A DNA stretch of 64,000 bases from Candidatus Iainarchaeum sp. (GCA_030649735.1 JAUSFL010000044.1:14038-78037), one strand, 5' to 3'; shown: positions 26,911 to 57,048, numbered from the stretch's first letter. Notes: a model not told the origin generated them from the sequence alone. Numbers and translations: made by a program.

Positions 26911-26921
26911 AACTTTAGAAA

Positions 26922-27356
26922 TTGAAAGTTTGCGTGGGAAAATTAATGGATAATTTTCGGGTTGCTGTAAAAGCATTGATTTTGGACGACGAAAACAATT
27001 TGCTGCTTGTCAGGCGAAGCCATGATGACAAAGTGGCCGCCGGGCTTTGGGAAATTCCTGGCGGAAGGCTGGAGCTTGGCGAAAGCCCTTTTGATGGATT
27101 AAAGAGAGAAGTGATGGAAGAAACTGGAATTCCAATAGATATTGGGGCTCCAGTAAACGTGCAGCATTTCACAAACACGGACAAGGTTGTAATAACAATG
27201 ATTATTTTCAAATGCAAGGCGCTTTCAAAGGAAGTAAAGCTTGTTGACGGAGAGCTTTCAGAATTTGGCTGGGTGAAAATTCCTGAAGCAAAAGCCAAAA
27301 TTACAAAATACTTCCATAAGGAAATAGATATTCTGGAAAAAATGGCTGGTGTTTAG
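26922..27356 (+). CDS. Nudix hydrolase
   Basis: Canonical Nudix box GGRLELGESPFDGLKREVMEETGI. Start may be the ATG at 26946. Confidence 0.8.
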   Translation: MKVCVGKLMDNFRVAVKALILDDENNLLLVRRSHDDKVAAGLWEIPGGRLELGESPFDGLKREVMEETGIPIDIGAPVNVQHFTNTDKVVITMIIFKCKALSKEVKLVDGELSEFGWVKIPEAKAKITKYFHKEIDILEKMAGV

Positions 27357-27358
27357 AA

Positions 27359-29248
27359 ATGCCGAAACTAAAATGCGGGATTGAAGTGCACCAGCAGCTT
27401 GATACTGGAAAATTGTTCTGCCGCTGCCCGAGCTTTTTGCGCGATGACAAGCCAGAATTCACTGTTGAAAGAAAGCTTCGTGCTGTTGCATCTGAAATGG
27501 GCGAATTTGACGCTGCAGCCTTGGAAGCAATGCAAAAGAATTATACGTTTGTTTATGAAGGACACCACGAAAACGCATGCCTAACGGACATTGACGAATC
27601 CCCGCCAATGCCAGTTGATAAAGAAGCCTTGAGAATAGTCCTAGAAGTTGCATTGCTTGCAAAATCAACAGTGCTTGACAAGGTTTTTGTAATGCGAAAG
27701 GCAGTTGTTGACGGAAGCAACACTTCAGGCTTCCAAAGAACAGCGCTTGTCAGTACTGGCGGAAGCCTGAAAATCAATGAAAAAAAAAGCGTGGGCATTC
27801 AGACAATTGCGTTGGAAGAGGACGCTTGCAGGCCTTCAAAGAAAGACGAGGAAAACAAGAGAATTTACTACCGTCTGGACAGGCTGGGAATTCCATTGAT
27901 TGAGCTTGCGACAGCGCCAGACATTGAAACTCCAGAAGAGGCAAAAGAGACTGCATTGGCCATTGGAAAATTATTGAGGATTACTTGCAAGGCAATGAGG
28001 GGCTTGGGGACAATAAGGCAGGACTTGAACATCAGCATTGAAGGCGGAGCAAGAATTGAAATCAAGGGCTGCCAGGATTTGGAAATGCTTGAAGAGCTTG
28101 TAAGGCGGGAAATGCAAAGGCAGGAAAAGCTTTTGGAATTGAAGAAAATTCTTTCTTCAAAAGCAAAGCCCGAAGATTTTGGAAAATTCGAGATTTTAGA
28201 GCTTTCGGAATTTTTCAAGAATTCTGAAAACAAGCTAGTGAAGGGAAAAAAGATTTTTGGGGCAAGAATTCCAAAAATGAAAGGACTGCTTGGAATTGAA
28301 TTACAGCCCGGAAGACGGTTTGGAAGCGAATTGTCAGACCAAGTGAAGGCAAAGGCAGGCTTGAAGGGATTATTGCACAGCGACGAGCTGCCGAATTATG
28401 GAATTACTGAAGCAGAGAAGAGTCGCATTGCAGGCAAGCTTGATATTCCTCTTGACGATATACTGCTCCCTTATGGCGACGCTTTCATTCTAGTGATTGC
28501 AGAAAAAGAAGCAGCGGAGAAAGCATTCAAAGCAATCAGCGCAAGGATTTTGCAGGCTTTCAAAGGAGTTCCTGAAGAAACCCGCAATGCTTTAGAGAAC
28601 GGAAACACTGAATATTCGCGCCCTTTGCCCGGAGCTGCTAGAATGTATCCTGAAACCGACATTGCTTCTTTTGAAACTTCAGAAAAAGAACTCAGCGAGT
28701 TGGAGAAAGAGCTGCCTTTATGGCCGCAAGAACGCGTGAGGCTTTACACTGAAAAATTCGGGGTTTCAAGACAGCTTGCAGAAAAGATGTCATTGGACAA
28801 TTACGCAATCTTTTTTGAAAGCCTTGCGAAAAAAGGCTTTGATGCAACGCAAGCCGCTGTTTTGCTTTTGGAGGGATTGACTCAGCTTTCAAGGGAAGGA
28901 ATCAATGTTGAAAAATTTACGGAGCAACAGATTGAAGAATCATTGCAGCTTTTGAAAGATAAAAAACTGACCAAAGAGACAGTTCTTGAATTCTTGAAAT
29001 TACGGAGCAAAAATCAGTTCAAACTTGCAGCGGAATTGCTAAAAGAGTTAGGCACTACAAGTGTTTCAGAAAAAGAAGTGCAAAAAACAATTGCCGCAAT
29101 TGTTGCAAAAAGCTCTGCGCTCATTAAGGAAAAAGGCGACCGGGCAATTTCAGCATTGATGGGTGAGGCAATGAAAGAACTGAAAGGAAAAACTGACGGG
29201 GCAACAATCTCGCGAATTCTAAAAGAAGAAATTGCAAAGCTCAAATAA
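27359..29248 (+). CDS. gatE: Glu-tRNA(Gln) amidotransferase subunit E
   Basis: N-terminal KCGIEVHQQLDTGKLFCRC, AspRS-like insertion, C-terminal GatB/YqeY tail. Contains an in-frame copy of the dispersed 16-mer at 29045-29060. Confidence 0.9.
   Translation: MPKLKCGIEVHQQLDTGKLFCRCPSFLRDDKPEFTVERKLRAVASEMGEFDAAALEAMQKNYTFVYEGHHENACLTDIDESPPMPVDKEALRIVLEVALLAKSTVLDKVFVMRKAVVDGSNTSGFQRTALVSTGGSLKINEKKSVGIQTIALEEDACRPSKKDEENKRIYYRLDRLGIPLIELATAPDIETPEEAKETALAIGKLLRITCKAMRGLGTIRQDLNISIEGGARIEIKGCQDLEMLEELVRREMQRQEKLLELKKILSSKAKPEDFGKFEILELSEFFKNSENKLVKGKKIFGARIPKMKGLLGIELQPGRRFGSELSDQVKAKAGLKGLLHSDELPNYGITEAEKSRIAGKLDIPLDDILLPYGDAFILVIAEKEAAEKAFKAISARILQAFKGVPEETRNALENGNTEYSRPLPGAARMYPETDIASFETSEKELSELEKELPLWPQERVRLYTEKFGVSRQLAEKMSLDNYAIFFESLAKKGFDATQAAVLLLEGLTQLSREGINVEKFTEQQIEESLQLLKDKKLTKETVLEFLKLRSKNQFKLAAELLKELGTTSVSEKEVQKTIAAIVAKSSALIKEKGDRAISALMGEAMKELKGKTDGATISRILKEEIAKLK
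29048..29059 (+). repeat. Dispersed element copy inside gatE, in frame (LGTT)
   Basis: Exact 12-mer within the 16-mer GAGTTAGGCACTACAA. Confidence 0.8.
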
Positions 29249-34106: not shown

Positions 34107-35192
34107 TCATGAATTCCTGACATACTCCAACGACAAAATGCCGTTAAGTTTTGGGGTTTCTGGATTCCTAATATTTTCCCCTTTAGGCGTATCAGTGCTA
34201 CCCTTCAGCACATCTCTGTCTGTGCTGAATCGAGATATGCCTTGGCGATACAAACTTGCAATATTGAATCCTGCGTTTGCATCGGCATTCTCAACCACCC
34301 CACATTTCGTGCAGTGGAATTCTTTTAGTTTTCTGTTCCTTGCTTCTATATGACCGCACTTACTACACCTTTGCGAAGTATATTGCGGTTCAACATAGGC
34401 AACAGGCACTCCGAACTTTTTGGATTTGTATTCTATCATTTTTTGCAACTGATAAAAACTCCAAGAGTTTATGGAATACCTCTGCTTTCTTCTCATTTTT
34501 GTAGTCTTTCGAATATCTTTCAATTCTTCAAGTACTATAATTGCTTTGCTATTTTGTGCTTCATCAATCAATTTCTTGCTTATCTGGTGATTAATATTCC
34601 TAATGATTCTGCTCTCTCTATCTTTGATTTTCTTAACAAGAGAATGCTTGCCATTCTTTTGAAGTGACCGTCTTATGTTTTTATATTTTGTGTGAATATG
34701 ATTGCACTTCTTACCTAGCTTAAGCACTTTTCCAGTATCAATATTTGAAGCTACAAGGACATGCTTAATTGTATTTCTATCCACACCAATCACTTGCTTT
34801 GGTTTGTATTGACAAGGTTCTTCGTATGAATATGACACATAAGCAAAAGTCTCCCCAATTTCAACTTGGTTTATCTTCTTAAATGAAATATTAAAGCGAA
34901 TTGGAAGTGTTAATTTCAGACAAGGTATTATTATCTCTTTTTTTGTGAATCTAATTCCTTGAGAAGGAACAGTCAGTTTTACTGAATTTACAGTTTTGAT
35001 TGTTTTATTTTTGGCATACTTTCGGAGGATTTGGTTGGCAATCACTGATTTCAAGCCAATATGTTTTACATCTTTGCTTGATAATGTTCTCTCTCTTATT
35101 GCATACTCAGCTATTTTCTTTGCCAAGCTAAGTTCTCTGCTAAAGTTCTGATAATGCTTTATTTTGAGAGTCAATATCAAAAAAGACCACAA
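34107..35192 (-). CDS. tnpB: TnpB (IS200/IS605 OrfB-family), solitary
   Basis: RuvC-I IGVDRN, E in IVLEELK, zinc finger CSKCGH...CTKCG. Only 21 nt separate its stop from the convergent ldcA stop. Confidence 0.85.
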   Translation of the reverse strand: MWSFLILTLKIKHYQNFSRELSLAKKIAEYAIRERTLSSKDVKHIGLKSVIANQILRKYAKNKTIKTVNSVKLTVPSQGIRFTKKEIIIPCLKLTLPIRFNISFKKINQVEIGETFAYVSYSYEEPCQYKPKQVIGVDRNTIKHVLVASNIDTGKVLKLGKKCNHIHTKYKNIRRSLQKNGKHSLVKKIKDRESRIIRNINHQISKKLIDEAQNSKAIIVLEELKDIRKTTKMRRKQRYSINSWSFYQLQKMIEYKSKKFGVPVAYVEPQYTSQRCSKCGHIEARNRKLKEFHCTKCGVVENADANAGFNIASLYRQGISRFSTDRDVLKGSTDTPKGENIRNPETPKLNGILSLEYVRNS

Positions 35193-37063: not shown

Positions 37064-37116
37064 AAAAACTTGTTTTTTAACAGTTTCCTTCCACTATTTT
37101 TTTGAAAAGAACCGCT

Positions 37117-37189
37117 AGCCCCGTAGTATAGTGGCCAAGTATGCCGGGCTTTGAACCCGTTGACGGGAGTCCGAATCTCCCCGGGGCTA
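37117..37189 (+). tRNA. tRNA-Gln (anticodon UUG)
   Basis: Acceptor AGCCCCG/CGGGGCT, anticodon loop CTTTGAA, T arm GGGAG-TCCGAAT-CTCCC, discriminator A, no encoded CCA. Confidence 0.8.
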
Positions 37190-37253
37190 TTAGCCAAAAG
37201 TTAGTAGCCTCTTTCCTCGTTTCTTTTAAAGTCCGAGGAAGGAGGTTATTAAC

Positions 37254-38525
37254 ATGGAAGAAAACGTTTTCGACCCGCATGGTTTGACCAAGCGAATGGA
37301 AGCAGAATTACGAAAGATTTCCTTGCTTCCAGAACCCAATAAATCTCTAATTCTGGATTTTTTGCACAATTACAGGTACAAAAAGAAGTCTTTGAGCTTG
37401 GCCAGGCGTTGTCGTTTGGCAAGCCAGTTTCACTTTTTTGCCAAGCTTTCAGGAAAGCCTTTGAATCCTTTTAGAGAACAGGATGCTCGAAGCTTGGTTG
37501 GCTTGATTGAAAGGTATGAGAATTCTCGAAAGCCTTATTCTTTGCATACTTGGAAAGAAATCGTAAAGAATGTTAAGATTTGGGTTAAATGGGTTAATCC
37601 TGAAGACTACCCTAACGTTTTGTTGAAGTGTAAAGATGTTTTAACAGTCCAAAACCCTTACTCAGACCCTAAAAGAAAAGCCAGTCTTGAGGATTTCTTG
37701 ATTACTGACGAAACCTTCCTGAAGCTTTTGAATGTAGCCAAAGACCAACAAAAAGCCATTCTAGCCATTGGATTTGGCTGCGGTTCAAGAACTGGAGAGC
37801 TCTTGGGTTTGCGTAGAAAAGACTTGAAATTCAATCCTGACGGAACAATATCGCTTTCTTTTCTTGAAAGCAAAACTTTTCCCCGAGAAAATATTTTATT
37901 AAGTCCAGACTTATCCTGTTACGTGCGAGAATGATTTGAAAAAAGCCCGTTGAAAAGCCAGAATGACTTCTTTTTCTGCACTGTCAACGGCCCGCCAAAA
38001 CCACTATCTCAAAACGCTCTTGGAATAATCCTAAAACGCCTGGCTGTCAAAGCCGGCTTAGGAAAATGGAAGAAAGTCAAGTCAAGCAATGGCATTTGGT
38101 ATTCTCACTATCAAGGCCAAAGAATCTATTTCACTAAATTCCGGCGTTCTGCAGCAACTTGGGCTTTAAAAAACTTGAAAAGCCACGCCTTAGCTGGCAA
38201 AAGAATCTGGGGTAACGAAGCTTCAAGCATGATTAAAATTTACTCTGGATTAGTTTCTGAAGACGCTAACGAAGCTTACAGGGAAGCTTTAGGTTTAGCA
38301 CAACCAACTCAAGTCGAAAACATTCTGAAGCCTAAAACCTGCTTCAAATGCCATACAATGCTTTCTCCAACTCAAAGCCTTTGCCCAAACTGTAAAATAG
38401 AAACAGACACTTCAAAATTAATAGATACTCAATTACTGAAAGAAGCAGAAATGACAGCCTTAAGGGAAGAAATGAAAATGCTCCAAACAGCACTAGCGCA
38501 AATAACCCTAAAAATGCAAAGTTAG
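37254..38525 (+). pseudogene. int: Tyrosine recombinase/integrase interrupted by one in-frame TGA (37932-37934); N- and C-parts in the same frame
   Basis: Core-binding N-domain; catalytic box GCGSRTGELLGLRRKDL (Arg) upstream of the stop; KFRRSAATW and KIYSG (Tyr) downstream. Junction reads YVRE*FEKSPLKSQ; the stop is a single transition from TGG (Trp). Strong SD AGGAGGT 8 nt upstream. Confidence 0.75.
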
Positions 38526-38532
38526 GCACTAC
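38522..38532 (+). repeat. Dispersed element copy (11/12) supplying the TAG stop of the integrase
   Basis: CAAAGTTAGGCACTACG; the stop codon is at 38523-38525. Confidence 0.7.
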
Positions 38533-38785
38533 GCCGGAACTAAAAAAGCAATAAAAAAGCTTCAAAAGCTAAGAAAAACAGTAAAAATAATGATTGCGCC
38601 AATCAAAGCAAAATAATGTTACAAAAAAAGGAATACGAGCTGAAAGAAACAACCTATTGGTTGAAAGGAGGGAAAATCCAGCTAAAAATTTCCCCCGAAT
38701 AAAAGATTATTCTTAGAGTGTGGATCCAAATCAATAAGCTCGCTCATTAAATCTTCAATTTTTTTGACAATCATTTTCAAGATTA

Positions 38786-39691
38786 TTATTGATTCCATTT
38801 CCTTTGCGTTTCTATTTTAGCGTGTAGTTTAAACTTTTTTCTGAATTGATTAATTTTTTCTTGAAAATCTTTTGGGTAGGTCTTAGATTTCTCGTTGAAT
38901 AAAAATTTTAAATATCCTACTTTTTGTGGATTTACTCCTATTAATTGGGCCAGTGTAAAGTCACACATGAATGGGTTATCGGATGCTAGCGCCCAATTGC
39001 AATTTATTTTGGTTCCAAACAGCGGTCCATTCCCCTCCATGCCTAGATAGCCATCAATTATTGAATAATTTGGATACGCTTTCTTGATTAAACTGGCCAA
39101 ATTATAATGAATTAATTTAATACTTTGCAAGTATTCTTTTCCTTTTAAGGTGTGTTTTCTCAAGCCATGAATTTTCACTCGATCTTCTGGTTTGATTAAT
39201 GGCATTACAAAGTTTTTGGTTGAACTTGTCATAATAGCGTAATCATGTGACTTTGGAACTGTCATTGATATCAAAATATCATAATCTAGAAAAGTCCGAT
39301 TAATTCTAACTTTATCCCACCCATAAATGGTTTTAACTGGGTGGGAGAAATATTCTGAGTCCAAATTTAGATCAACAAAAGATGCTCCGTGTTTTTGAAT
39401 GATGTCCCAAACGCCAAATTTTTTGAGTGTTGATTTGGTAGTAAGCCCTTGTTGCCAGGACTCGCCGCTTCCTTCAGCCACTGTAATTTTAGATGGGTGG
39501 TGTTCTGTTAAGATTTGTAAAACAGTGTCTAGCGATTCTGCAGAGGTATCTGCTAGTTGGGTATTGCAAGAAGTAAAATTTGGTTTTATAAAAATAGATT
39601 TATCCCGTATTTTGTCGTCTGAGAATAGTTTTGGAACTATTGAACGTATGTTTTCAACTCTGTTTTTGCCGCCAGTCAACAAAATTTTCAT
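38786..39691 (-). CDS. DUF362-family protein
   Basis: IFIKPNF... and overall DUF362-like pattern; first gene of a minus-strand pair with the kinase. Confidence 0.45.
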   Translation of the reverse strand: MKILLTGGKNRVENIRSIVPKLFSDDKIRDKSIFIKPNFTSCNTQLADTSAESLDTVLQILTEHHPSKITVAEGSGESWQQGLTTKSTLKKFGVWDIIQKHGASFVDLNLDSEYFSHPVKTIYGWDKVRINRTFLDYDILISMTVPKSHDYAIMTSSTKNFVMPLIKPEDRVKIHGLRKHTLKGKEYLQSIKLIHYNLASLIKKAYPNYSIIDGYLGMEGNGPLFGTKINCNWALASDNPFMCDFTLAQLIGVNPQKVGYLKFLFNEKSKTYPKDFQEKINQFRKKFKLHAKIETQRKWNQ

Positions 39692-40371
39692 GCATTCACT
39701 TTAATTAATTTTGGGTGGTTATAATTTGCATTGTTTATAACTAAATTGGCTGCTTTTTTTGGGTGGTTTTTTCTAAGGTACCATTGTTGGGCTGGTTTGT
39801 GCCAATGGTTCCACCGAAATATTACTTCTTTTCTGGAAATTTTTCTCACAATTGGCTCTCTTTTAAGTTGCCGTTCAAACGAGCATGAAAATGGAATGTC
39901 TAAAAAAATTCTGAACGCCGGTATCTTGCTAAATTCCTTTTTTGATAGAAAAACGCCCTCAACGATTAAAATTGATTCTTTTTTGACTTGTATTTTTTCC
40001 TTTTTTTTCTTGGTTTTATTGTTAAATATTAAGGATTCTTTTTCTAGTTTGCCTTTCTGAATGAATGTTGTTAGAATTTTTTTTATGGTTATAAAATCAA
40101 ACCATTGGCTATAATATGCTTTCCAGGAAGATTTTCCGTTTCTGATTCTCTTGGTTTCGGTTTTCAAAAAGTCATCCACCCGTAATTGGGTGGATTTTAT
40201 CGCCTTGCTGTAAAGGCTTTTTTTTAGATTGCGGGCAAAGTATGTTTTTCCGGATGCGTCTATTCCGTCCACAAAAATAATGGTTTTCCCACTCTTCAAA
40301 AATGAGTTTACTACCATTGTCATTATTGAATCTGTTTTCCTATTTGGCCAATTCTGTTGGGGCATAGACAT
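39688..40371 (-). CDS. P-loop nucleoside/nucleotide kinase-like protein
   Basis: Walker A VDGIDASGKTYFARNL, ~200 aa. True start probably a few codons downstream of 40371. Confidence 0.5.
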   Translation of the reverse strand: MSMPQQNWPNRKTDSIMTMVVNSFLKSGKTIIFVDGIDASGKTYFARNLKKSLYSKAIKSTQLRVDDFLKTETKRIRNGKSSWKAYYSQWFDFITIKKILTTFIQKGKLEKESLIFNNKTKKKKEKIQVKKESILIVEGVFLSKKEFSKIPAFRIFLDIPFSCSFERQLKREPIVRKISRKEVIFRWNHWHKPAQQWYLRKNHPKKAANLVINNANYNHPKLIKVNA

Positions 40372-40405
40372 TTAAAGAATATAATCATTAATAAAAGCTT
40401 CCGAA

Positions 40406-41749
40406 TTGAATGATTCTATGCAAAAAAGATTGACGGAGAAAATCATACAAGTTGTTCTGAAAGATTTGATTCATCAGCCCACCAATAGTAAAAGCCGCGC
40501 TGAATTGATTTTAGACTGCTTGTTTGAAGGAAGAAAGGGGATTAGCTGGGATTTTCGTTGCGATTTGTATTTCTTTTTTCTGAAAACGATTGTTACTAAA
40601 ATGATGAAAGAGAACCGGGAGCTCATTGATACTGTGAAAAAAGGTTACTGCGATTATTCTATTTTTAAAAAAGCGCTTAACAAGGCCCTCAAACTTTATC
40701 TTACCAGTATTGTGGAATATGGAATCACAACTCCCCAAAAATTTAGCTTTCCATTCCTTGTGGAATTTGAACTCACTAATAAGTGCAATTTGGCGTGTAA
40801 ACATTGTTATGCAAATGCTGGTAAAGAGCTGGCTGATGAAATTAATACTCAAGAAGCAAAAGAAATCCTTAACCAGCTAAACAATATAGGTGTTCCAATA
40901 GTCTGTTTCACTGGCGGAGAGCCCTTTCTAAGGGCAGACTTCTTTGAATTACTTGAACACTCTAATAAAATAGGCCTCTTGACTGTTATAACTAGTAATG
41001 GAACCTTGATTACAAAGGAAAGTGCAGCCAGACTCAAAGAATTGCAAGTGGAATATATTAGAATCAGCTTGGACAGTGCAACCCCTAAAACGCACGATTG
41101 GCTAAGGGGAATGCCAGGAGCCTACGAGCAAACCATTCAAGGAATAAAAAATTCTATCCAAGCTGGAATCAAAACCGGAGTCACTACAGTTTTGATTCAA
41201 GAAAACTCGTCAGAAATGGAACAAATGATAGAACTTTTGAGCCAATTAGGGTGTTCAGATTTTACTGTGTGCAGGTTGTTTCCATTAGGTAAAGGAAGTT
41301 CGTTGCAAAATAGTTTGCTTAACAAAGAAGAATTGAGTAAAGTGGAATCTCGCATTTCGGCAAAAGCAAAAGAGCACCCTAATCTTTTGATGAATCCTTT
41401 GACGCTGGAAGGCAGAATCCATTCAAAAAAAGACATGCTACGGAAAATAACAGACATGATTGGAGGCTGCCCTGCCGGATTAAACGTATGCGCCATTACT
41501 CCTAAAGGGGAAATAAAGCCTTGCGCGCTAATGTCTATAACCGCGGGGGATTTTAAAAAACAAAAGTTTGAAGAAGTCTGGAAAAACAGTCGGTTATTTA
41601 ATGAACTTCGGGATCGCTCGCTGCTTAAAGGAAAATGTTCCGCTTGCGAATTCAAATTTTCGTGCGGTGGTTGTCGTGCAACCGCATATGGTTATACTGG
41701 AGATTACCTTGAGACAGACCCCATCACATGCATGTTACGTATAAAATGA
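40406..41749 (+). CDS. Radical SAM enzyme with C-terminal SPASM domain and ~115-aa N-terminal extension
   Basis: CNLACKHC (CxxxCxxC) and a SPASM Cys cluster (CPAG...C...CSACEFKFSCGGCRA). Confidence 0.8.
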   Translation: MNDSMQKRLTEKIIQVVLKDLIHQPTNSKSRAELILDCLFEGRKGISWDFRCDLYFFFLKTIVTKMMKENRELIDTVKKGYCDYSIFKKALNKALKLYLTSIVEYGITTPQKFSFPFLVEFELTNKCNLACKHCYANAGKELADEINTQEAKEILNQLNNIGVPIVCFTGGEPFLRADFFELLEHSNKIGLLTVITSNGTLITKESAARLKELQVEYIRISLDSATPKTHDWLRGMPGAYEQTIQGIKNSIQAGIKTGVTTVLIQENSSEMEQMIELLSQLGCSDFTVCRLFPLGKGSSLQNSLLNKEELSKVESRISAKAKEHPNLLMNPLTLEGRIHSKKDMLRKITDMIGGCPAGLNVCAITPKGEIKPCALMSITAGDFKKQKFEEVWKNSRLFNELRDRSLLKGKCSACEFKFSCGGCRATAYGYTGDYLETDPITCMLRIK

Positions 41750-41770
41750 CTCCGCTAATGGGATGATAAT

Positions 41771-43123
41771 GTGAAAAGAATACAGAACCTGATTGGAAGC
41801 GCTATAATCAAATCCGCGTTATTTGATTTGTCCAAACCAATAGGGGTTTTAAAGAAAAGCCGTGCTGAACTCATTTTAGACAGACTCTTTGAAGAAAAAA
41901 AAGAGATTGATTGGGACATTAAATGCCGAATTTATTTTTTTCTCTTGAATCAAATAATGGCTAAAATGATTAAAGAAAATAAGATCACGATGCAAACTGC
42001 AAAGAAGTTTTTTCAGGATTACCCTATTTTTAGAAGAATACTCAATAAAACGCTTAAACTATTTCTTCAGAGCATAACTGAATACGGGATTACTATGCCG
42101 CAAAAACTTAGTGCGCCATTATTGGTAGAATTTGAGTTGACTAATAAATGTAATCTTGCATGCAAACACTGTTATGCAAATTCTGGAAGCAAATTTGCAA
42201 AAGAACTGGATTTAAGAGAAGTAAAAGAAATCCTGAACCAAATCAACCAAGCCGGCGTTCCTTTAGTGTGCTTTACTGGCGGCGAACCACTTCTAAGGCC
42301 GGACTTCTTTGACATTTTGAGCCATGCTAAGCGCATTGGTCTTGTTACTATTGTTACAACCAATGGGACTCTAATCACAAAAGAAAAGGCCAGAAAGTTC
42401 AAAGAGCTTGGAACAGATTATATCCGCATTAGTTTGGATGGGGCAAGTATAAAAACACATGATTGGCTGCGTGGAATTCCTGGCGCGTATAAAAGAACCG
42501 TTCAAGGAATCAGAAATTCCATTGAAGCAGGAAACAAAACCGGAATAGGCACAGTTCTAATTCAAGAAAACGTGCATGAACTTGAAAACTTGATTGATCT
42601 GGCAGCTCAATTAGGTTGCACTGACATAAACGCAATTCCGCTCATTGAAAGCGGTCGGGCAAAAAGCACTTTGAATAAAGAGATTCATGAAATGAGCAAT
42701 GAACAAAAAAAGAAAAACGAAGAGTTGATAGTTGCAAAAGCCAAAGAATATGAGGGAAAAATGCTGCTTAATTTTTTGGATTTAGATCATATTCGCAGGG
42801 TAAAAGGTTCATCAAAGCATTTTGTTGGTTGGGCTCAAGGTGGTTGCGCTGCAGGGCGAACAGTTTGTGTCATAAACCCCAATGGAGAAATTCGGCCATG
42901 TATCACTCTTAGATTGAATGTCGGAAGCCTGCAAAAACAAAAGTTTGTAAAGATTTGGAAAAATTCCAAAATAATGGAAGAACTTAAAAACCGTTCTCTT
43001 GTAAAAGGAAGTTGCGGCAAATGTGAATCCAAGTATACTTGTGGGGGATGCCGCGCTGCAGCTTATGATAAATTTGGGGATTATCTTGAATCAGACCCTG
43101 GTTGCTATGTGCGATACTTTTGA
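41771..43123 (+). CDS. Radical SAM/SPASM enzyme, paralog of 40406-41749
   Basis: Same architecture (CNLACKHC; C-terminal CGKCESKYTCGGCRA); recognisably similar along its length. Confidence 0.8.
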   Translation: MKRIQNLIGSAIIKSALFDLSKPIGVLKKSRAELILDRLFEEKKEIDWDIKCRIYFFLLNQIMAKMIKENKITMQTAKKFFQDYPIFRRILNKTLKLFLQSITEYGITMPQKLSAPLLVEFELTNKCNLACKHCYANSGSKFAKELDLREVKEILNQINQAGVPLVCFTGGEPLLRPDFFDILSHAKRIGLVTIVTTNGTLITKEKARKFKELGTDYIRISLDGASIKTHDWLRGIPGAYKRTVQGIRNSIEAGNKTGIGTVLIQENVHELENLIDLAAQLGCTDINAIPLIESGRAKSTLNKEIHEMSNEQKKKNEELIVAKAKEYEGKMLLNFLDLDHIRRVKGSSKHFVGWAQGGCAAGRTVCVINPNGEIRPCITLRLNVGSLQKQKFVKIWKNSKIMEELKNRSLVKGSCGKCESKYTCGGCRAAAYDKFGDYLESDPGCYVRYF

Positions 43124-43145
43124 GATTGGGAAAAAGCGTGATTGA

Positions 43146-44360
43146 ATGGAATTATATATTGAAAGAGCAAAAGGAGTTTGGCTATACGGCCAGAATAATG
43201 AAAAGTATTTGGACGCGTGTGCTGGGACGTTTAACATAATTCTTGGGCATGGGGAAGAACGAGTAATGGACGCCGTCCAAGAACAATTGGGTAAAATGGT
43301 TCAATATTCTTCTTCTTGGAAAAGCCATTTAGTTGAAGATTTCTCAGCAAACCTTTTGTCAATATCTCCAAAAAATTTGGACTCCTGTTTTTGTAAAGTT
43401 ACTGGGGGAAGTACTGCAAACGAAGTGGCCATTAGAATGTTGGCAAAAAATTTAAATAGAAAAAAAGTGATCTTGATGGAAGGCAGCCATCATGGGAATA
43501 CAATTTTTCTTTCAAACAATCAATCTGTTTTGAATGAAAATAATAAAATCTTTGTGAAAATGCCTAAACTTTCCTTTCCATCCATGTCTAGCATGAATGA
43601 TTCGGCATGGGCAAAATCCGCTGCTGATTTGGACTTTTTATTTAAAAAACACTCAAAAGAAGCGGCTTGTTTCATAATTGAACCAATTCAAGGCCGAGGT
43701 GGAAATCTTGTACCCCCAAAGTCATTTTTTAAAACGGTTTCAGAATCAGCTTCAAGGTATAGTATACCCATAATTGCCGATGAAGTGCAAGTGGGTGTTG
43801 GCCGAACTGGAAAGTTTTTTGGAAGTGAAGCTGTTGGCTTGTTACAACCAGATGTAATTGTCTTGGCCAAAGGAATCACTGGGTGTGGTTTTCCTTTAGG
43901 CGTAATTTTATATGACTCAACGTATGGAAAATTGGAATCAGCAAAAGACGGTTTTACTTTTGGATCCAATCTAGTTTCAGTTGCGGCAGCCAAAAAAACA
44001 GTGGAAATAGTGAGCGATCCAAAGTTTTTGCAGGAAATCCAATTTAAAGGAGAATATTTGCGAGCCAAGCTTGAAAAGCTGCAACTTGAGCACAATTCTT
44101 TGGAAGATATTCGCGGCATTGGGTTGTTTTTTGGCATAAAACTGAAGTCTGGAAAAGAATTTCCAAGCACTGAACGCATGATTGCAGTTCTTGCTAAAAA
44201 TGGGGTAATCTGCCGGTCAAGCGAAAACGTTCTTAAAATTAGACCGCCCCTTGTAATAACTTTGGAACAAATTGATTTTTTATGTAAATCATTGGAGGTG
44301 GCTCTGAATGAAACAGAAAGAAAAACTAAATTGGCAAATGGAATTCTTGCGCATGGGTAA
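43146..44360 (+). CDS. Class-III (omega) PLP-dependent aminotransferase
   Basis: IADEVQVGVGRTGKFFG, PLP-Lys region VLAKGITGCGFPLG, ~400 aa. Confidence 0.8.
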   Translation: MELYIERAKGVWLYGQNNEKYLDACAGTFNIILGHGEERVMDAVQEQLGKMVQYSSSWKSHLVEDFSANLLSISPKNLDSCFCKVTGGSTANEVAIRMLAKNLNRKKVILMEGSHHGNTIFLSNNQSVLNENNKIFVKMPKLSFPSMSSMNDSAWAKSAADLDFLFKKHSKEAACFIIEPIQGRGGNLVPPKSFFKTVSESASRYSIPIIADEVQVGVGRTGKFFGSEAVGLLQPDVIVLAKGITGCGFPLGVILYDSTYGKLESAKDGFTFGSNLVSVAAAKKTVEIVSDPKFLQEIQFKGEYLRAKLEKLQLEHNSLEDIRGIGLFFGIKLKSGKEFPSTERMIAVLAKNGVICRSSENVLKIRPPLVITLEQIDFLCKSLEVALNETERKTKLANGILAHG

Positions 44361-45297
44361 ACTCCTTCGAAAAGAAATCACTTCATTGAAACAGTTTAAC
44401 GAACGGCAAAAAATTTCTGGAATTAGCAAATCAGGAGATCCCCAATTTAAAGTGGATAATATTGCTGAAAACTTTCTTTTAAAACAAATAAAAAAGATTT
44501 CCAAAAAAACAAGCATTGCTTATTTTTCAGAAGATAAAGGCCTTGTTCGTTTTGCAAAAAACCCAGAGTATTTGCTGATTTGCGACCCAATTGATGGATC
44601 AAGACCGTTCTCAGCTGGTTTTGAGTCAAATAACTTTTCGATTGCACTTGCAGAAACAAATGGTAAAGACCCCACGGATTTAACATTTGCTCAAATAGTC
44701 TCGGGTTTTTTATTGGAACTGAAAACCGGAGAATATCTTTTTGCGGAAAAAGGAAAAGGAGTTATTCAAAACGGAGCTAAATTTCAACCTAAACCCACTC
44801 GTTTTAATAGCAATAACTTGAACCAATTGTTTTGGAGTTTTGAATTCAATGGAACCCCCTCAAGAATTGTTCATGAAATACTGGGTGATTTGATTGATAC
44901 TTCAGCAAATAAGGGGGGCATTTTTGTTTTCAATTCTGGAAGTTATTCAATTTCAAGAGTGATTACTGGCCAACTTCACGCATATATTGACATTGGAAAT
45001 TTGGTTTTGAAGAAATTTCCCGAACTTGAAAAAGAATTCAAATCTGTAGGTTCGGGATCAATTCTGCACTTGTTCCCGTATGACATTGCAGCCTCCTACA
45101 TTATTGCAAAAGAAGCGCACATAAGCATTGCAGATGCTGCAGGAAATTCATTGGAATCTCTTTCCCTAACAGATTTATCTGCACAAAATCAAACTTCTTG
45201 CGTATGCGCGCTGAATGAAAAGCTATCCAAGAAACTAATTAACGAGATTTCTGTAAACCTAGAAAAAAAACGAAAACAAATCGCTGAAGAACAGTGA
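44308..45297 (+). CDS. Inositol-monophosphatase-family (IMPase/FBPase-like) phosphatase
   Basis: LICDPIDGSRPF (DPIDGT-type motif). Start probably 44338 or 44353. The 3' end overlaps the convergent gene by 59 bp. Confidence 0.7.
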   Translation: MKQKEKLNWQMEFLRMGKLLRKEITSLKQFNERQKISGISKSGDPQFKVDNIAENFLLKQIKKISKKTSIAYFSEDKGLVRFAKNPEYLLICDPIDGSRPFSAGFESNNFSIALAETNGKDPTDLTFAQIVSGFLLELKTGEYLFAEKGKGVIQNGAKFQPKPTRFNSNNLNQLFWSFEFNGTPSRIVHEILGDLIDTSANKGGIFVFNSGSYSISRVITGQLHAYIDIGNLVLKKFPELEKEFKSVGSGSILHLFPYDIAASYIIAKEAHISIADAAGNSLESLSLTDLSAQNQTSCVCALNEKLSKKLINEISVNLEKKRKQIAEEQ

Positions 45298-45874
45298 ATA
45301 AAGCAGCTATTGCGAGTAGAAGCAACACAACGCCAGCCATTTGGCTATCGAATAACAGCAAGATAAAAATTAGAACGAATAACATGCATCTTTCTCCTCT
45401 TTGAATTAACCCATGCATATTGTCAAGTTGTTTTCGCCAGTTAGGGTTGCTGTATGATGCATGCGACTTGGCAAAACTGGTTAAAAAAACACCCAAAATG
45501 CAAGTAAAAATTATATAATTCCAAGAGATAAAAAAACCAAAAAGGTTGACAGAATTCAAATTTAAACTCCACAATCCAACTAACAAAAGAAAGTCAACCA
45601 GGATATCAGATAACCCATCAAAATAATCGCCAAAAGGAGTTTGTTTTTTCAAATATTTGGCTATACTCCCATCAAAAATGTCAAACAGAAAAGAAAGCGA
45701 AAAAAGAATACCTCCTAAAAGAATTTGCTTCTCAACTAAGCTTAGAAAACCGCTAAACCCAAGCACAACTGCCAGTAAAGTCCATTGATTAGGGGATAAA
45801 GGCACGATCGAAAGCATTCTCCCAACAGATTGTTCTAACTCAACCAATTGCTTATCAAATAACCCTTTAATCAT
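45239..45874 (-). CDS. CDP-alcohol phosphatidyltransferase
   Basis: DGSIAKYLKKQTPFGDYFDGLSD matches D-G-x2-A-R/K-x8-G-x3-D-x3-D; multiple TM helices. Confidence 0.8.
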   Translation of the reverse strand: MIKGLFDKQLVELEQSVGRMLSIVPLSPNQWTLLAVVLGFSGFLSLVEKQILLGGILFSLSFLFDIFDGSIAKYLKKQTPFGDYFDGLSDILVDFLLLVGLWSLNLNSVNLFGFFISWNYIIFTCILGVFLTSFAKSHASYSNPNWRKQLDNMHGLIQRGERCMLFVLIFILLLFDSQMAGVVLLLLAIAALFTVLQRFVFVFFLGLQKSR

Positions 45875-46622
45875 TTGTAATGCCGCCCAAAAACAAAATA
45901 AATTCTGGAATTTTAGTAATCTTTGGAAATAGTTGCCCTGTCTTTTGTTGGTATATTACATATTCTTTCCCAAATCTTTGAATCAAATCTTTCTCCTCAA
46001 TTGAAATCCACATCAAAGCAGTTAAGCACACTGCTAAAAACGATAATAAACCAAATAAGCTCGGACTAATAATGAAAAGTCCAAAACAAACCACGACTGC
46101 TATTCCCAAAAAGGGATGGCGAATAAACCGAAAAACCGAGTTCTGCTTCAATTTAAAACTAGAAGGAAAAAATGAGCCCATAACATATATTTCTTCAACA
46201 GAAAAGACTTTTACTGCCTTCTTCCAAATTAACAATGCAATCAAGAATAAGATAAAACCCGCAACGAAATTCACTGGGTGAATTTGTTTTATATTTCCAG
46301 CAAAAAAAGGAATTAGTAAAGCAGAATACCACAAACACATTCCAAAAAAGAAAAAAGGCAGTGCATGACGATAATTTAGTCTTTGATCGCCCGTCTTTTT
46401 TGAAAAACCATGCGCTTTCTTCCAGAGCAAAAAACTAAGCGCGCAATAAACTAACGATTGTAAAAACGGTATAAAATCAAATTTTATAATCGCGTTTGGT
46501 ACAAATGCAAATAGAAAAGCAAAAATAAAAAGCGCAAACAACAAAAAGTAATATCTTGGAGGAGAAATCTCCGGAACTAAATCAAATAAACGCAATTTTT
46601 CCTCACGAATATTCACGGGCAA
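45867..46622 (-). CDS. ICMT/PEMT-family membrane methyltransferase (isoprenylcysteine carboxyl / phospholipid methyltransferase-like)
   Basis: RFIRHPFLGIA...IEEKDLIQRFGKEYVIYQQKTGQLFP signature; polytopic. Confidence 0.65.
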   Translation of the reverse strand: MPVNIREEKLRLFDLVPEISPPRYYFLLFALFIFAFLFAFVPNAIIKFDFIPFLQSLVYCALSFLLWKKAHGFSKKTGDQRLNYRHALPFFFFGMCLWYSALLIPFFAGNIKQIHPVNFVAGFILFLIALLIWKKAVKVFSVEEIYVMGSFFPSSFKLKQNSVFRFIRHPFLGIAVVVCFGLFIISPSLFGLLSFLAVCLTALMWISIEEKDLIQRFGKEYVIYQQKTGQLFPKITKIPEFILFLGGITND

Positions 46623-47614
46623 ATAACCACCTTTACCGCAGTTGATTCTCGTGCAAACCTTCTTGATGCAAAATCATATCCAAGAACTTCAAAAGCTTCC
46701 CGATAATCTTTCAAACCAAACTTGTGAGTAATAATGTCTTTGCCCCTAATTCTTGGCAGTAACTTGATCGCTTGTTTAAATGTACCAGAGTCCATATTGA
46801 CTCCAAGAATATCCACGTTCTTTTGAGCAATCAAAAAAGGTTCAATCTTCTCAACATGCCCTGGACTCATTCCAAATAACACTAACTTGCCAGCAGGCTT
46901 GACCAAGCGAACCCCCAGCTCAAACGCTTGCCCAGAAGAATCAATCACAAAATTAAAACCATTCGATTCATCCCCCTGGCAAATTGTTATCCCAAACTTT
47001 TGAGCAAAAGCACACCTAAACTCGGACTTTTCAACGCCAAAAACTTTTATTCCCCTCAATCTAAAGAGTTCAGCCCAAATCAACCCAGTAGGACCAAGAC
47101 CAATAATACACGCTGTTTGATTCTTTTTGATGTTAAGCCGATTAAAACCATTCAATATACACGCCAATGGCTCAACCAAAGTAGCTTCTTCAAAGCTAAT
47201 ATTATCAGACAACTTATACACATTACTTTCTCTGATTTTCACAAAAGCAGCAAATGCCCCGTTGATATTAACACCCAACTCACCATTTCCGCCAGTACCT
47301 AAATTTTTACACAAATTCTGCTTTCCATCAAGACAAAACTCACAATTCCCGCAAGTTAGTGTTGGATCAGCAACTACCATATCCCCAATTTTAAATCGCC
47401 TTGCTTTATTCCCTGTTGAAGTAATTACGCCGGAAAATTCATGACCCAGAACAATATTATCTAAACAACCCATAATCCCTGAAACAATCTTTAAATCAGA
47501 CCCGCAAATTCCGCAACAATTAACCCTAATCAGAACCTCATCTGGTAAAACGGCTGGCATGGGAAATTGGCTCACTTCCAGACTACTCTTTTTAGACAAA
47601 CACAATGCATCCAT
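46613..47614 (-). CDS. Zinc-dependent medium-chain alcohol/polyol dehydrogenase
   Basis: GHEFSGVI, Cys-rich structural-zinc loop (CGNCEFC), Rossmann IGLGPTGL. Start taken at MDALCL; the ORF track extends to 47668. Confidence 0.82.
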   Translation of the reverse strand: MDALCLSKKSSLEVSQFPMPAVLPDEVLIRVNCCGICGSDLKIVSGIMGCLDNIVLGHEFSGVITSTGNKARRFKIGDMVVADPTLTCGNCEFCLDGKQNLCKNLGTGGNGELGVNINGAFAAFVKIRESNVYKLSDNISFEEATLVEPLACILNGFNRLNIKKNQTACIIGLGPTGLIWAELFRLRGIKVFGVEKSEFRCAFAQKFGITICQGDESNGFNFVIDSSGQAFELGVRLVKPAGKLVLFGMSPGHVEKIEPFLIAQKNVDILGVNMDSGTFKQAIKLLPRIRGKDIITHKFGLKDYREAFEVLGYDFASRRFARESTAVKVVICP

Positions 47615-48033
47615 AAACATGGAAATAAGGTTGTTACTGAATAAAAAAATAGCACATTCTAATGCCAAAATTAGTGTATAATGATTTGATAATTATTATA
47701 GTGGGTCTTTTAGATATCTTCTTTCAAAATAATCAATTAATTGTAAATTACAAGTTTAGAACTATGATTACATTTGTTTATGATAAAAAATTGTTAAAAC
47801 ATCAACTGAAAATCCAAAATATGATTAATTAAGTCTGGATTGAACTTCGAATTTCTTGTATATTCTATGGGTTTTTAAGTGTAGGAATTGCCTTGCTTTT
47901 AGCTGATTTCTAGTAATCCTTGTTGTTTTTTCTATTAATTAGACTAGATTAGCTTTATTCTTGGCAAAAAGAAATAATTAAGCTTATTTGCTGGTTTTAG
48001 TTTTTGCAGTTTCTTTTTTTCTGGGTTATTTTT

Positions 48034-48044
48034 TGTAGTGCCTA
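48034..48044 (-). repeat. Dispersed element copy (11/12, reverse) in the repeat-dense non-coding block
   Basis: TTTTGTAGTGCCTAT. Confidence 0.65.
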
Positions 48045-48198
48045 TGTCTCTATTTTTGCTTTTGTTTTCGGGACATTTACAAGACATTTTTTGGGTTTGC
48101 GGGACAATTAATTGGCAATTTTATAGTTGATTTTTTTGATTCGTATTTTTTTTGCCGACATTTTCCCGACATTTTTTCACTTTTCCCGACACCCATTT

Positions 48199-48210
48199 TG
48201 TAGTGCCTAA
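48199..48210 (-). repeat. Dispersed element copy (exact, reverse) in the repeat-dense non-coding block
   Basis: TTTTGTAGTGCCTAA. Confidence 0.8.
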
Positions 48211-48296
48211 TGCTGCTTTCAATTTTCCTATTTTCTGCTTAGTGCCATTTTTGTGCCATTTTTTTACTTTGCGTGTCATTCAAAGCTTGCATCTTC

Positions 48297-48307
48297 TGTA
48301 GTGCCTA
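48297..48307 (-). repeat. Dispersed element copy (11/12, reverse) in the repeat-dense non-coding block
   Basis: CTGTAGTGCCTAT. Confidence 0.65.
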
Positions 48308-48482
48308 TGCTCCGCTTTATTCACTTGCTTGCCAGTAACTGAGTTAACTCATGCTTAAATAATTCAATGTAGAAGGTATGTCTAGAGAGTTTTCAAAACT
48401 GCTTTATAAAAGCAGAAGTAAGGACTTCTCATGAGAAACCCGACAACGACAATAAGAAGGCCGGAACAGAAATTAATGCAAG

Positions 48483-48671
48483 GTGAAGAAATTGGAACTA
48501 CAGCAAACTCTTACAGTTAGGAAGAATGAGCAAATGACGGCAAAGCAAGTGGCCTTGTTGCTGGCGAGAAAGACAGATTTTGAGTTAAAGCGAGAGTTTC
48601 CGGTTTTTTGGGAATTGCTTGCAATAAAAAGCAAAAGTTGGAAAAGTGTTGATGATGAGTTTGAATATTGA
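48483..48671 (+). CDS. Small hypothetical protein
   Basis: 62-aa ORF at the edge of the repeat block. Confidence 0.3.
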   Translation: MKKLELQQTLTVRKNEQMTAKQVALLLARKTDFELKREFPVFWELLAIKSKSWKSVDDEFEY

Positions 48672-48882
48672 GTTGAGAATACCAAAGCAAGTAGTGCCTA
48701 ACTGTTTTCTCTGCCTCTCAAACAAAAGAAAACGCAAAAAAATGGTGTTCCGTACAACCCAAAGAAGATGGGTTTGCAAAGAATGCCTTGACGCGCTTGG
48801 AGAAAACCAAATACAACAAATGCTTGAAAAAATTCCTTTGGCTGAAGATATAATATTCAGAAAGCCAAGCATCAATTTTTAG
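48646..48882 (+). CDS. Small zinc-ribbon protein
   Basis: CFLC...CKEC. Confidence 0.35.
   Translation: MLMMSLNIELRIPKQVVPNCFLCLSNKRKRKKMVFRTTQRRWVCKECLDALGENQIQQMLEKIPLAEDIIFRKPSINF
48691..48701 (-). repeat. Dispersed element copy (11/12, reverse) between small ORFs of the element
   Basis: AAGTAGTGCCTAACTG. Confidence 0.65.
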
Positions 48883-48890
48883 TGATTGCT

Positions 48891-49241
48891 TCAGACGCAG
48901 ATTATTTTTACTGTTTTTAAGTCTATTAGCGGGGTTCTTTTTTCTGTTTCGTTGATGATTTCGAACATTTTTTCAACGTTTTCTGGAACGTTTGCTTCAT
49001 TGATGTCTTTTTTTGAAGTGTTTTTTCTTGTTAGGTATTCTTGTGCGAAAGAGCGGGATATTGACTTGACTTTTTTGAAGTCTATGGTTATTTGTTTCTC
49101 TTTCATTTTCTCTAAATCATCAAAGAAGTTGCTGACTAGGTCTCTTAAAGCAAGGTTTTCGGAAATTATTTTTGCAATTTCTATCTTACTTGATAAAGTC
49201 ATAAATGTCCACTTCTTTTGCCGGATAGGGTATTCTGACAC
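48891..49241 (-). CDS. STAS-like (DUF4325-like) small protein, partner of the upstream GHKL ATPase
   Basis: ITIDFKKVKSISRSFAQEY pattern, 116 aa; overlaps the ATPase 3' end. Confidence 0.4.
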   Translation of the reverse strand: MSEYPIRQKKWTFMTLSSKIEIAKIISENLALRDLVSNFFDDLEKMKEKQITIDFKKVKSISRSFAQEYLTRKNTSKKDINEANVPENVEKMFEIINETEKRTPLIDLKTVKIICV

Positions 49242-49995
49242 TTATTAGGGTGCCTTGTAACCTATAATTGTCTCGGAGTTTATATAATTTTGTTGGTTCA
49301 TTGCCTTTAAAGTAGGCTGCCCCATTTCCTGACACAATAAGCAGCTCTCCCGAAAGGCCTTTTGTGAAAAGCTTTAAGTTTGAGCCTAAGCCAAAACCAC
49401 GCTCTTTCCCTTTGGTTGAAAGGCCATTAATTGCCTGGATTATGCTTTCAGCGTCCTCAAAAACCATTCCTTTTTTTGCAAAACTACCGGGAATTGTTAT
49501 TCCGTCATCAAAAAAGCATATTTCAACAAATCCTTTCTTTTCATACTTTTGGGCCATTACAAAAGCATTCTTGAATTCTGAATGCTGATAAATGTTATCA
49601 ACAAGCTCGTTTATCAAATATTTGAAAGCATTTTCCCCACCATACTCTTTGCCATTATTGTGCAGTTTGAAAATCTGTTCTAGAAACTTTTCTGAATCCT
49701 TTTCTGCAACTTTTGGCGGCAGGCCTATTATTGGAATGTAAGTTTTTAATCCATTCTCAACCTTAAACTCACCAATAACCAAAGAAATATAGTTTGCGGC
49801 ATTCTGATTTGCTGGGGGAACATACTTGATTTTCTTGCTGTTTTCCTTAATGAACACGCCTAAAGGAAGCAAGGTTGTGGGATAAAGCCAGCTAACAGTT
49901 TGCAAATTAAGAACTTTTGTTTCAATGCTGGAATTCTTAAAATTACAGAAAATAAGGTAATTGTTCAATTGATTAGGAAACTCCAACTCAGCCAT
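49186..49995 (-). CDS. GHKL-superfamily ATPase (histidine-kinase-like ATP-binding domain) with N-terminal unknown region
   Basis: N box ELVDNIYQHS, G1 DDGITIP, G2 GFGLGSNL. Confidence 0.6.
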   Translation of the reverse strand: MAELEFPNQLNNYLIFCNFKNSSIETKVLNLQTVSWLYPTTLLPLGVFIKENSKKIKYVPPANQNAANYISLVIGEFKVENGLKTYIPIIGLPPKVAEKDSEKFLEQIFKLHNNGKEYGGENAFKYLINELVDNIYQHSEFKNAFVMAQKYEKKGFVEICFFDDGITIPGSFAKKGMVFEDAESIIQAINGLSTKGKERGFGLGSNLKLFTKGLSGELLIVSGNGAAYFKGNEPTKLYKLRDNYRLQGTLISVRIPYPAKEVDIYDFIK

Positions 49996-50232
49996 AAAGC
50001 AATTATCGCTAAAAAGAGAATAAAAACCTAAGCAGGCGAGAATTCCACTGGAAAAAAGCGCCAGAAACGTTTTACGCAGAAAAAATTATTAACAACTTAC
50101 TACTTCTATGTCAACTACTAAAGGATAAATAAAAGAAGCGAGTTTTAAGCATTGAGGGAATTCTTACTTTTGACCTTTATTCTCCCCGGGGCTATTAAGA
50201 CCTGGGGCTTTTTTGAACAGCAGTTCAAAATT

Positions 50233-56752: not shown

Positions 56753-57048
56753 TCTAAAACCACTTTTGGGCCTTTGAAGTAGCCATTTTTTGAATGCTTT
56801 GCCAATGAAAGCGCTTCCTCTTGTGAAATGCATTCTCCCGCATTGTCTTTCCTGAAAACATTCTTTACAGGCAATGGCTGGAAGGAAGGCTTTGCTTTTG
56901 AAACATCGACTTCATCAAGCCTGTCAAAGACTTCAAGAATTTCTTTCATTTGCGAAAGGAACTTTTTCACCTCGCTTTCCGAAAGCTTCAGGCGCGAGTT
57001 TTTCGCGACTTTCAGGATTAATTCTTCATCAAGCTTTAATTTAGGCAT
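56749..57048 (-). CDS. gatC: Amidotransferase subunit C
   Basis: 99-aa GatC-like protein; stop overlaps the gatA start (ATGA). Confidence 0.75.
   Translation of the reverse strand: MPKLKLDEELILKVAKNSRLKLSESEVKKFLSQMKEILEVFDRLDEVDVSKAKPSFQPLPVKNVFRKDNAGECISQEEALSLAKHSKNGYFKGPKVVLE

Follow-up and report, generated by a model that had tools for sequence, protein, structure and literature searches.

In engineered split Cre, the active site of a tyrosine recombinase is assembled from two chains. Archaeal integrases found as two open reading frames (ORFs) are known from SSV-type elements, in which the attachment site (att) lies inside the integrase gene (int), so that integration leaves int(N) at one end of the element and int(C) at the other (PMC8371274). 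Such Int halves can bind DNA, and TKV4 Int(C) appears to help excision in trans (PMC8371274). The present analysis concerns an integrase found as two ORFs in a stretch of 64,000 nucleotides (nt) from Candidatus Iainarchaeum sp. (GCA_030649735.1 JAUSFL010000044.1:14038-78037), the whole of which is hereafter called the window. A ~13-kb island is integrated there at a tRNA-Gln gene of a Candidatus Diapherotrites (DPANN) archaeon, with a tyrosine integrase gene at its left (attL) end, and this gene is interrupted by a single in-frame TGA. We read the TGA as a real and probably recent TGG to TGA nonsense mutation at Trp227, situated in the only part of the gene that tolerates breaks and leaving the integrase attenuated or split, a reading to which a probability of roughly 0.55 is given. 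Taken alone, the interrupted gene of the window is ordinary; the interesting part is the recurrence of breaks at this site in the integrase family, together with the conserved split of two relatives, L002 and L009.

The integrase gene of the window comprises the following parts:

37254..37934, plus strand: N-terminal ORF of the tyrosine integrase, 226 aa, covering the N-terminal/core-binding domain plus the beginning of the catalytic domain (R179, E182, K207) and ending in TGA.
37932..37934, plus strand: in-frame TGA in place of the conserved Trp227 codon, which is TGG in the intact relatives L003 and L007; the TGA is the same in an independent assembly.
37935..38525, plus strand: the integrase's C-terminal portion in the same frame, with R297 and Y330 as well as a zinc ribbon (CxxC...CxxC) and, at the C-terminus, a coiled coil.
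37241..37245, plus strand: Shine-Dalgarno (SD)-like GGAGG, 8 nt 5' of the integrase ATG, read from the sequence.

Around the stop the sequence is TGT TAC GTG CGA GAA TGA TTT GAA AAA AGC CCG, that is CYVRE-stop-FEKSP(LKSQ). As the first-pass annotation of this DNA had observed, the two ORFs lie in one frame and are parted by nothing but the TGA at 37932-37934, after which the frame stays open for 196 codons, with zero further stops, up to its TAG-terminated end at 38525. The first possible start for the C-terminal half is a TTG at 37950 without SD-like motif. The integrase ATG itself has a strong GGAGG, and a motif of this kind is absent from most other genes of the window.

With Trp put at the stop, the match to PF00589 (Phage_integrase) runs across it (residues 153-308, 33.2 bits vs a cut-off of 27.1), and homologues carry a precomputed PF00589 annotation. 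Pfam matches to zinc ribbons near residues 356-384 of the repaired integrase are weak. R179, K207, R297 and Y330 fall in columns that do not vary across the family, E182 and the four Cys being likewise invariant, and the canonical His-II and His/Trp-III positions are occupied by Thr and Asn in this subfamily, so that the pattern is R-K-R-Y and not the full hexad. The earlier statement that a Trp at the stop restores a tyrosine recombinase with R-K-R-Y was thus borne out. The stop divides these catalytic residues, with R179, E182 and K207 upstream and R297 and Y330 downstream and, judged by the residues that each carries, neither fragment alone has a complete active site. At NCBI the N-terminal ORF is MDO8648008.1, a 'hypothetical protein', and the C-terminal ORF is MDO8648009.1, a 'zinc ribbon domain-containing protein', both belonging to the metagenome-assembled genome (MAG) of a Candidatus Diapherotrites archaeon (MAG contig Q7R70 for MDO8648008.1). 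As a point of annotation, these present labels hide both the integrase and the island.

The same TGA is found in an independent Logan contig, SRR13727527_32402 (13,085 nt), which corresponds to window positions 37135-50219 with one mismatch, a His60Tyr change in the integrase. Sequencing error, listed among the options by the first-pass annotation, is made unlikely by this second assembly. TGA also terminates 20 of the 49 likely genes of the window, among them gatA, whose stop overlaps the gatB start as ATGA (55307-55310) and whose product spans Pfam Amidase positions 1-445 of 445, and FeoB, downstream of which an unrelated gene, for an ATP-dependent DNA ligase, lies in the same frame. Use of TGA as a sense codon was rejected on the basis of this stop usage and of the full-length GatA and FeoB, in agreement with the earlier view that TGA is a genuine stop in this genome and a code change unlikely. 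The codon shared by two assemblies and the normal use of TGA as a stop together make error or a code change very unlikely.

Close homologues of the integrase are few and come from Diapherotrites/Iainarchaeum MAGs and metagenomes, the full-length ones having 406-426 aa; at E < 1e-10 the wider family numbers roughly 2,400 loci. Contig searches located three loci of relatives in genome contigs and two in metagenome contigs, and a scan of viral contigs for relatives of the integrase returned none. Of the nine closest homologues, six align a Trp with the stop; both intact relatives whose DNA was fetched (L003, of 84% aa identity, and L007) have a TGG codon there, and the closest relatives, P0001-P0004, are uninterrupted. 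Given the Trp of the relatives and the TGG of L003 and L007, a TGG-to-TGA transition is the simplest origin of the stop. The nonsense mutation proposed earlier is therefore retained, as a probably recent one. Compared with L003, the window gene has an omega of 0.09 in the C-terminal half and 0.04 in the N-terminal half, and the same C/N ratio was obtained for L001. With one lesion and a C-half omega of 0.09 the gene does not resemble a decaying pseudogene, although a very recent inactivation would look alike.

The first-pass annotation had regarded a natural break at this point in homologues as evidence against its own account, and the comparison with homologous integrases revealed such breaks: at least four other lineages of this small Diapherotrites family are broken by point lesions no more than 10 codons from the Trp, one by a nonsense mutation and three by frameshifts. 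Counted from the conserved Trp (W), the breaks are as follows:

Window, W+0: TGG to TGA, downstream frame intact.
L001 (P0005, Iainarchaeum MAG), W+5 to W+10: 1-nt deletion, giving two overlapping ORFs.
L002 (P0008) and L009 (P0018), W+7: identical 1-nt insertion, ...CCCAAGAAA[A/G]TAA..., with intact downstream ORFs of 180-187 aa.
L016 (P0047), W+5 to W+7: +1-type shift.
L010-L013 (P0017, 17 contigs), W+3: in-frame TAA, then a truncated C-part and a transposase remnant.
L014 (P0151), W+7: end of the ORF, homology stopping just past the Trp and the contig ending 35 nt on, too short to classify.

Identity among the broken lineages, or between each and its nearest intact relative, is only 35-50%, which implies that the lesions are independent. 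Five point lesions thus fall in 11 of ~420 codons, with P ~2.4e-6 under a uniform spread and 6.6e-5 without L010. A mutational hot spot was considered and ruled out: each gene has 33-46 homopolymer runs (>=4 nt) spread along its length, and the nonsense opportunities are likewise spread over the whole gene, 3.8% of the possible nonsense substitutions falling in the break stretch. Ascertainment bias is expected to act in the direction opposite to the clustering, since a mid-gene break yields the lowest-scoring fragments. In L010-L013, found in several samples, an intact 224-aa N-terminal ORF and its TAA are followed by the shortened C-part and by a C-terminal remnant of a DDE transposase (...YNHKRPHMSL...).

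A split kept through divergence, with both parts under purifying selection, was found for L002/L009 only. These two share their frameshift at a DNA identity of just 68%, and their pN/pS is 0.23 in the N-terminal half and 0.23 in the catalytic core of the C-terminal half, compared with 0.83 for an out-of-frame control, synonymous sites being saturated (pS 0.81-0.84). Equal purifying selection on both halves indicates that the downstream half has been translated throughout the divergence of L002 and L009. In both, an ATG lies inside the 17-20-nt overlap of the two ORFs with GGGAG 7 nt upstream, and L016 also has an ATG in its overlap, with GGGTGA 6 nt upstream. This spacing of 6-7 nt between motif and ATG fits the start of a second polypeptide, to which it seems better suited than to an RF2-like +1 signal.

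The L002 contig has 9,897 nt, and its two ends overlap exactly over 30 nt (k-1 for an assembler with k=31), from which L002 is probably a circular element of ~9.87 kb. It has an attP-like copy of the tRNA-Gln 3' end, CTCTCCGGGGCTA, just upstream of int; L009, for its part, is integrated beside tRNA-Gln, where the surroundings (AspRS-gatCAB) look chromosomal. A split inherited by both from a common ancestor would mean that the element has integrated or excised at least once since the split arose. Convergent frameshifts in L002 and L009, in place of a shared ancestral one, may be a caveat here. Apart from the split integrase and a second, small recombinase, the ORFs of L002, including one for a 953-aa protein, have no assigned function. 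In L009 a degenerate C-terminal stretch lies at 7100-7240, and the catalytic core is still conserved. A protein search for a further member of the L002/L009 lineage returned none.

The location of the breaks was placed on the AlphaFold2 (AF2) model of P0001, which is 84% identical to the window integrase. The model (pLDDT 91.9) shows a Cre/Xer fold to which a beta-hairpin, a zinc ribbon and a long C-terminal helix are added, and Foldseek against the PDB returned Cre, XerH, Tn1549 Int and XerA with E of 1e-6 to 1e-8, as well as the heterodimeric topoisomerase IB of Leishmania, a kinetoplastid (PDB 2b9s). In this model helix 217-229 has the Trp close to its end, and the lesions fall at the end of the helix and in the following loop (230-238), which precedes a short strand with a D/N-x-F/L-F motif. 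The break segment is variable in length and sequence across the family. It is therefore plausible, on the modelled fold, that this is a surface loop that accepts indels and a site at which a break in the chain would still let both parts fold together; the loop would then be one that tolerates chain breaks.

Taken together, these observations are best accommodated by a real, probably recent nonsense mutation at Trp227, in a stretch where breaks are tolerated. Alleles broken at the loop would persist, some activity surviving, and alleles broken elsewhere would be lost. The main product of the window gene would be the 226-aa N-terminal fragment, and residual recombinase could arise by two routes: near-cognate reading of the UGA by tRNA-Trp, which would restore the exact wild-type protein, or re-initiation at the TTG at 37950, followed by assembly of two fragments. 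The net effect would be a strongly attenuated integrase and an island largely, but not necessarily completely, fixed in the chromosome. The first-pass annotation had gone further in listing, among its likely options, a mutation that locks the element and domesticates its cargo; an enzyme weakened or split by the stop is no less likely. The locked state is also made less probable by the fact that the split of one relative is old, under purifying selection and on a circular, episome-like contig.

Several points weigh against this favoured interpretation. Any activity of the window's own allele is one that we infer from sequence. Its N-terminal fragment stops before the conserved Trp, while the long-lived splits keep the Trp and 5-7 further residues; the sole nearby start for its C-terminal half is the TTG, without SD-like motif; and UGA-U is a context not known as leaky, with no RNA structure downstream (z = -0.5). 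An exact look-up of the repaired (W227) protein, that is the intact TGG allele, in the protein collection gave no match, which bears on the age of the mutation. In the family, gross rearrangements occur elsewhere in the gene (an insertion sequence (IS) at ~aa 110 in L019/L020, a deletion at ~aa 147 in L018, a rearrangement at W+27 in L021), L010 is a clearly decayed pseudogene, and the sample is small, with roughly 20 close members. In the conserved pair, L002 encodes a second small tyrosine recombinase across the contig junction that could do the work, and the L009 protein has a degenerate extreme C-terminus in which the fourth zinc-ribbon Cys (CPEDG, not CxxC) and the coiled coil are lost.

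Two other accounts deserve mention. The first is bolder than the favoured interpretation and is put forward tentatively: the catalytic domain would contain a fission-permissive loop, the L002/L009 and L016 elements would have a recombinase of two polypeptides (an R-I/K chain and an R-II/Tyr chain), and the TGA allele of the window would be an early or leaky stage of such a fission, its island being mobilisable. An ATG with GGGAG or GGGTGA could start the second part in L002, L009 and L016, whereas the window has only the TTG at 37950, though most genes of the window are without SD.

The second account is plain loss of function, in which a recent random nonsense mutation locked the island as domesticated cargo and the coincidence with the break site means nothing. 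This is an alternative to be taken seriously, though less probable than the favoured interpretation. It agrees with the incomplete active site of each half, with a C-terminal half devoid of SD and ATG, with an N-terminal fragment lacking the conserved Trp and with a cargo that is metabolic and not viral; the decayed L010 shows that such breaks can start pseudogenisation, and the low omega of the C-terminal half is equally expected if the mutation is very recent. On the other hand, a random lesion would hit the 11-codon stretch only ~3-4% of the time, zero second lesions are present over the 196 downstream codons, and a split at this very site is carried by an element under purifying selection, seen in circular and integrated forms.

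Selection for the truncated N-terminal fragment itself (about 225-232 aa), which could, for instance, act as a dominant-negative DNA-binding protein or an immunity factor and so prevent excision or the integration of related elements, is an unlikely explanation. Three kinds of lesion all give N-terminal fragments of 220-232 aa, the N-terminal ORF is intact and the C-part destroyed in L010-L013 (17 contigs), and the truncated halves of IntSSV1 each bind target DNA, with the N-terminal part mediating multimerisation (PMC8371274). Such a function would nevertheless leave unexplained why selection on the C-terminal half equals that on the N-terminal half in L002/L009 and why start codons with SD-like motifs stand in the ORF overlaps.

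Programmed recoding, by regulated readthrough in the window and +1/-1 frameshifting in the relatives with a low ratio of full-length protein to N-terminal fragment, is very improbable. Recoding-like breaks do recur at one site of a mobile-element recombinase gene, the stop replaces a Trp, the residue that near-cognate reading of UGA inserts, and the C-terminal half is under selection in L002/L009. However, the hallmarks of programmed recoding, namely a signal and a structure conserved in relatives, were not found: a zero-frame slippery heptamer is absent at the breaks, and six folds around them, made in search of RNA structure that promotes readthrough or frameshifting, gave no significant structure near any break (z -0.2 to -1.1; window z = -0.5). 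Moreover, lesion type and exact position differ by lineage, the closest relatives P0001-P0004 are intact, and where frameshifts occur, the distance from the SD-like motif (6-7 nt) suits initiation at ATG, not an RF2-type +1 signal. Finally, a mistake in sequencing or assembly, or a sense reading of TGA in this organism, is conceivable a priori but can be practically dismissed: a second assembly, built independently and differing at one other base, has the same TGA, and TGA ends 20 of 49 genes, including those of full-length GatA and FeoB.

The island to which the integrase belongs is delimited by the following features:

37116..37190, plus strand: tRNA-Gln(UUG), the integration target of the island (ARAGORN; Rfam RF00005, 59 bits).
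37176..37192, plus strand: attL core TCTCCCCGGGGCTATTA, 17 nt, equal to the tRNA-Gln 3' end and an exact direct repeat with 50181-50197.
50181..50197, plus strand: attR core, the second copy of TCTCCCCGGGGCTATTA, an exact direct repeat.
38786..49995, no strand assigned: cargo genes of the island (Pfam).

The tRNA-Gln gene ends 64 nt upstream of the integrase ATG, and its full 24-nt 3' end occurs once in the window, with 0 occurrences expected by chance in shuffles. GC is 0.33-0.39 between the repeats vs 0.40-0.42 in the flanks. Relatives of the integrase are also found directly 3' of tRNA genes (Gln, Ser, Glu, 'Ile'). The locus thus has what is expected of a tRNA-integrated element: int adjoins the tRNA 3' end, a direct repeat stands at the far border and att is outside the ORF, the last of which makes the integrase one of the non-suicidal type. 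From the junctions of the island, the empty site would read ...GGAGTCCGAATCTCCCCGGGGCTATTA joined to AGACCTGGGGCTTTTTTG and the circle ...TTGACCTTTATTCTCCCCGGGGCTATTA joined to GCCAAAAGTTAGTAGCC; an exact search of viral contigs for the circular attP junction of the window's island gave zero matches. Contig SRR13727527_32402 (L015/L017) reaches 41 nt beyond the attL core on the left and 23 nt beyond the attR core on the right and is essentially the island alone. Its ends at the island borders could reflect a presence/absence polymorphism in the population or, equally, branching of the assembly graph at the conserved tRNA.

The cargo encodes a DUF362 protein, a PRK-like kinase, two radical SAM/SPASM paralogues, a class-III aminotransferase, an inositol-P-phosphatase-like protein, a CDP-alcohol phosphatidyltransferase, a PEMT-like methyltransferase, a Zn-ADH, a DUF4325 protein and a 269-aa protein without assigned family. 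By the look of the gene set, the part at 38786-47668 resembles a pathway leading to an aminocyclitol or to the head group of a polar lipid. Just inside attR, at 48891-49995 (minus strand), the 269-aa protein overlaps the DUF4325 (STAS-like) protein, and the two may be a regulatory or defence pair.

Outside the island, a TnpB/Cas12f-like ORF (PF07282 TNB domain) lies at 34107-35192 on the minus strand, 2 kb upstream of the tRNA-Gln attachment site. GatB (53379-55310, minus strand, 643 aa) has an N-terminal aminoacyl-tRNA editing domain (YbaK-like, PF04073) fused to GatB_N and GatB_Yqey, a fusion that is unusual for an amidotransferase subunit; a plain 474-aa GatB is found in the related genome of L009. 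The window has an archaeal GatD/GatE pair, a GatC/A/B set and a GAD-domain AspRS (25561-29248, plus strand; 53379-56833, minus strand; 59070-60833, minus strand) and also, at 61618-63006 on the minus strand, a gene for a xylanase-like glycoside hydrolase (family 10), here in the genome of a DPANN archaeon.

A nonsense mutation in the integrase of an island is by itself routine and marks an element heading to fixation; the interest here comes from the family context. Should the halves work together, this would be a concrete case of integrase attenuation or fission controlling the mobility of elements in DPANN archaea, whose mobile elements are almost uncharted. Literature searches of incomplete coverage turned up nothing on this family, on tyrosine recombinases that point lesions split at a conserved loop, or on recoding of integrases in DPANN archaea.

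Among described systems, the window integrase is closest to the non-suicidal (pNOB8-type, 'type II') archaeal integrases, with which it shares the tyrosine-recombinase fold and PF00589, the tRNA 3' end as target, the bounding repeat and an att outside the ORF. It differs from them in that its family has a four-Cys zinc ribbon, a long coiled coil and Thr/Asn at the His-II and His/Trp-III positions, and in that the window gene is interrupted. With the SSV-type suicidal integrases (SSV1/2, pTN3, pT26-2; PMC8371274, PMC7253208) it has in common that it is archaeal, targets a tRNA gene and is found as two ORFs. In contrast to these, the halves of the window are adjacent and collinear with a point lesion between them, att is upstream of the gene and not inside it, and the break falls within the catalytic domain between K-beta and R-II, the C-terminal half being without R-I and K. 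A split of the SSV type was ruled out, as the halves are contiguous and no att-like sequence is found at the break or in the gene; the attP-like site of L002 is also upstream of int.

The single nonsense mutation and the metabolic cargo are reminiscent of the integrase pseudogenes of cryptic prophages and fixed islands. Unlike those, the window gene is without further decay and its lesion stands where the lesions of relatives recur, one of them kept under purifying selection. The frameshifted genes for IS1 InsA/InsAB' and IS3 OrfA/OrfAB are likewise recombinase genes of mobile elements with a short N-terminal DNA-binding product and a rare full-length enzyme, but here there is no slippery motif and no stimulatory structure, and lesion types are heterogeneous. 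The kinetoplastid topoisomerase IB (2b9s) offers a further likeness, since it builds the active site of a related fold from two chains, and the ORF layout of L002/L009 and L016 looks like such a fission. For the present family assembly of the halves is a prediction, unlike in 2b9s, and the window allele has no obvious start for its second half; if the halves do work together, this would be a natural split tyrosine recombinase.

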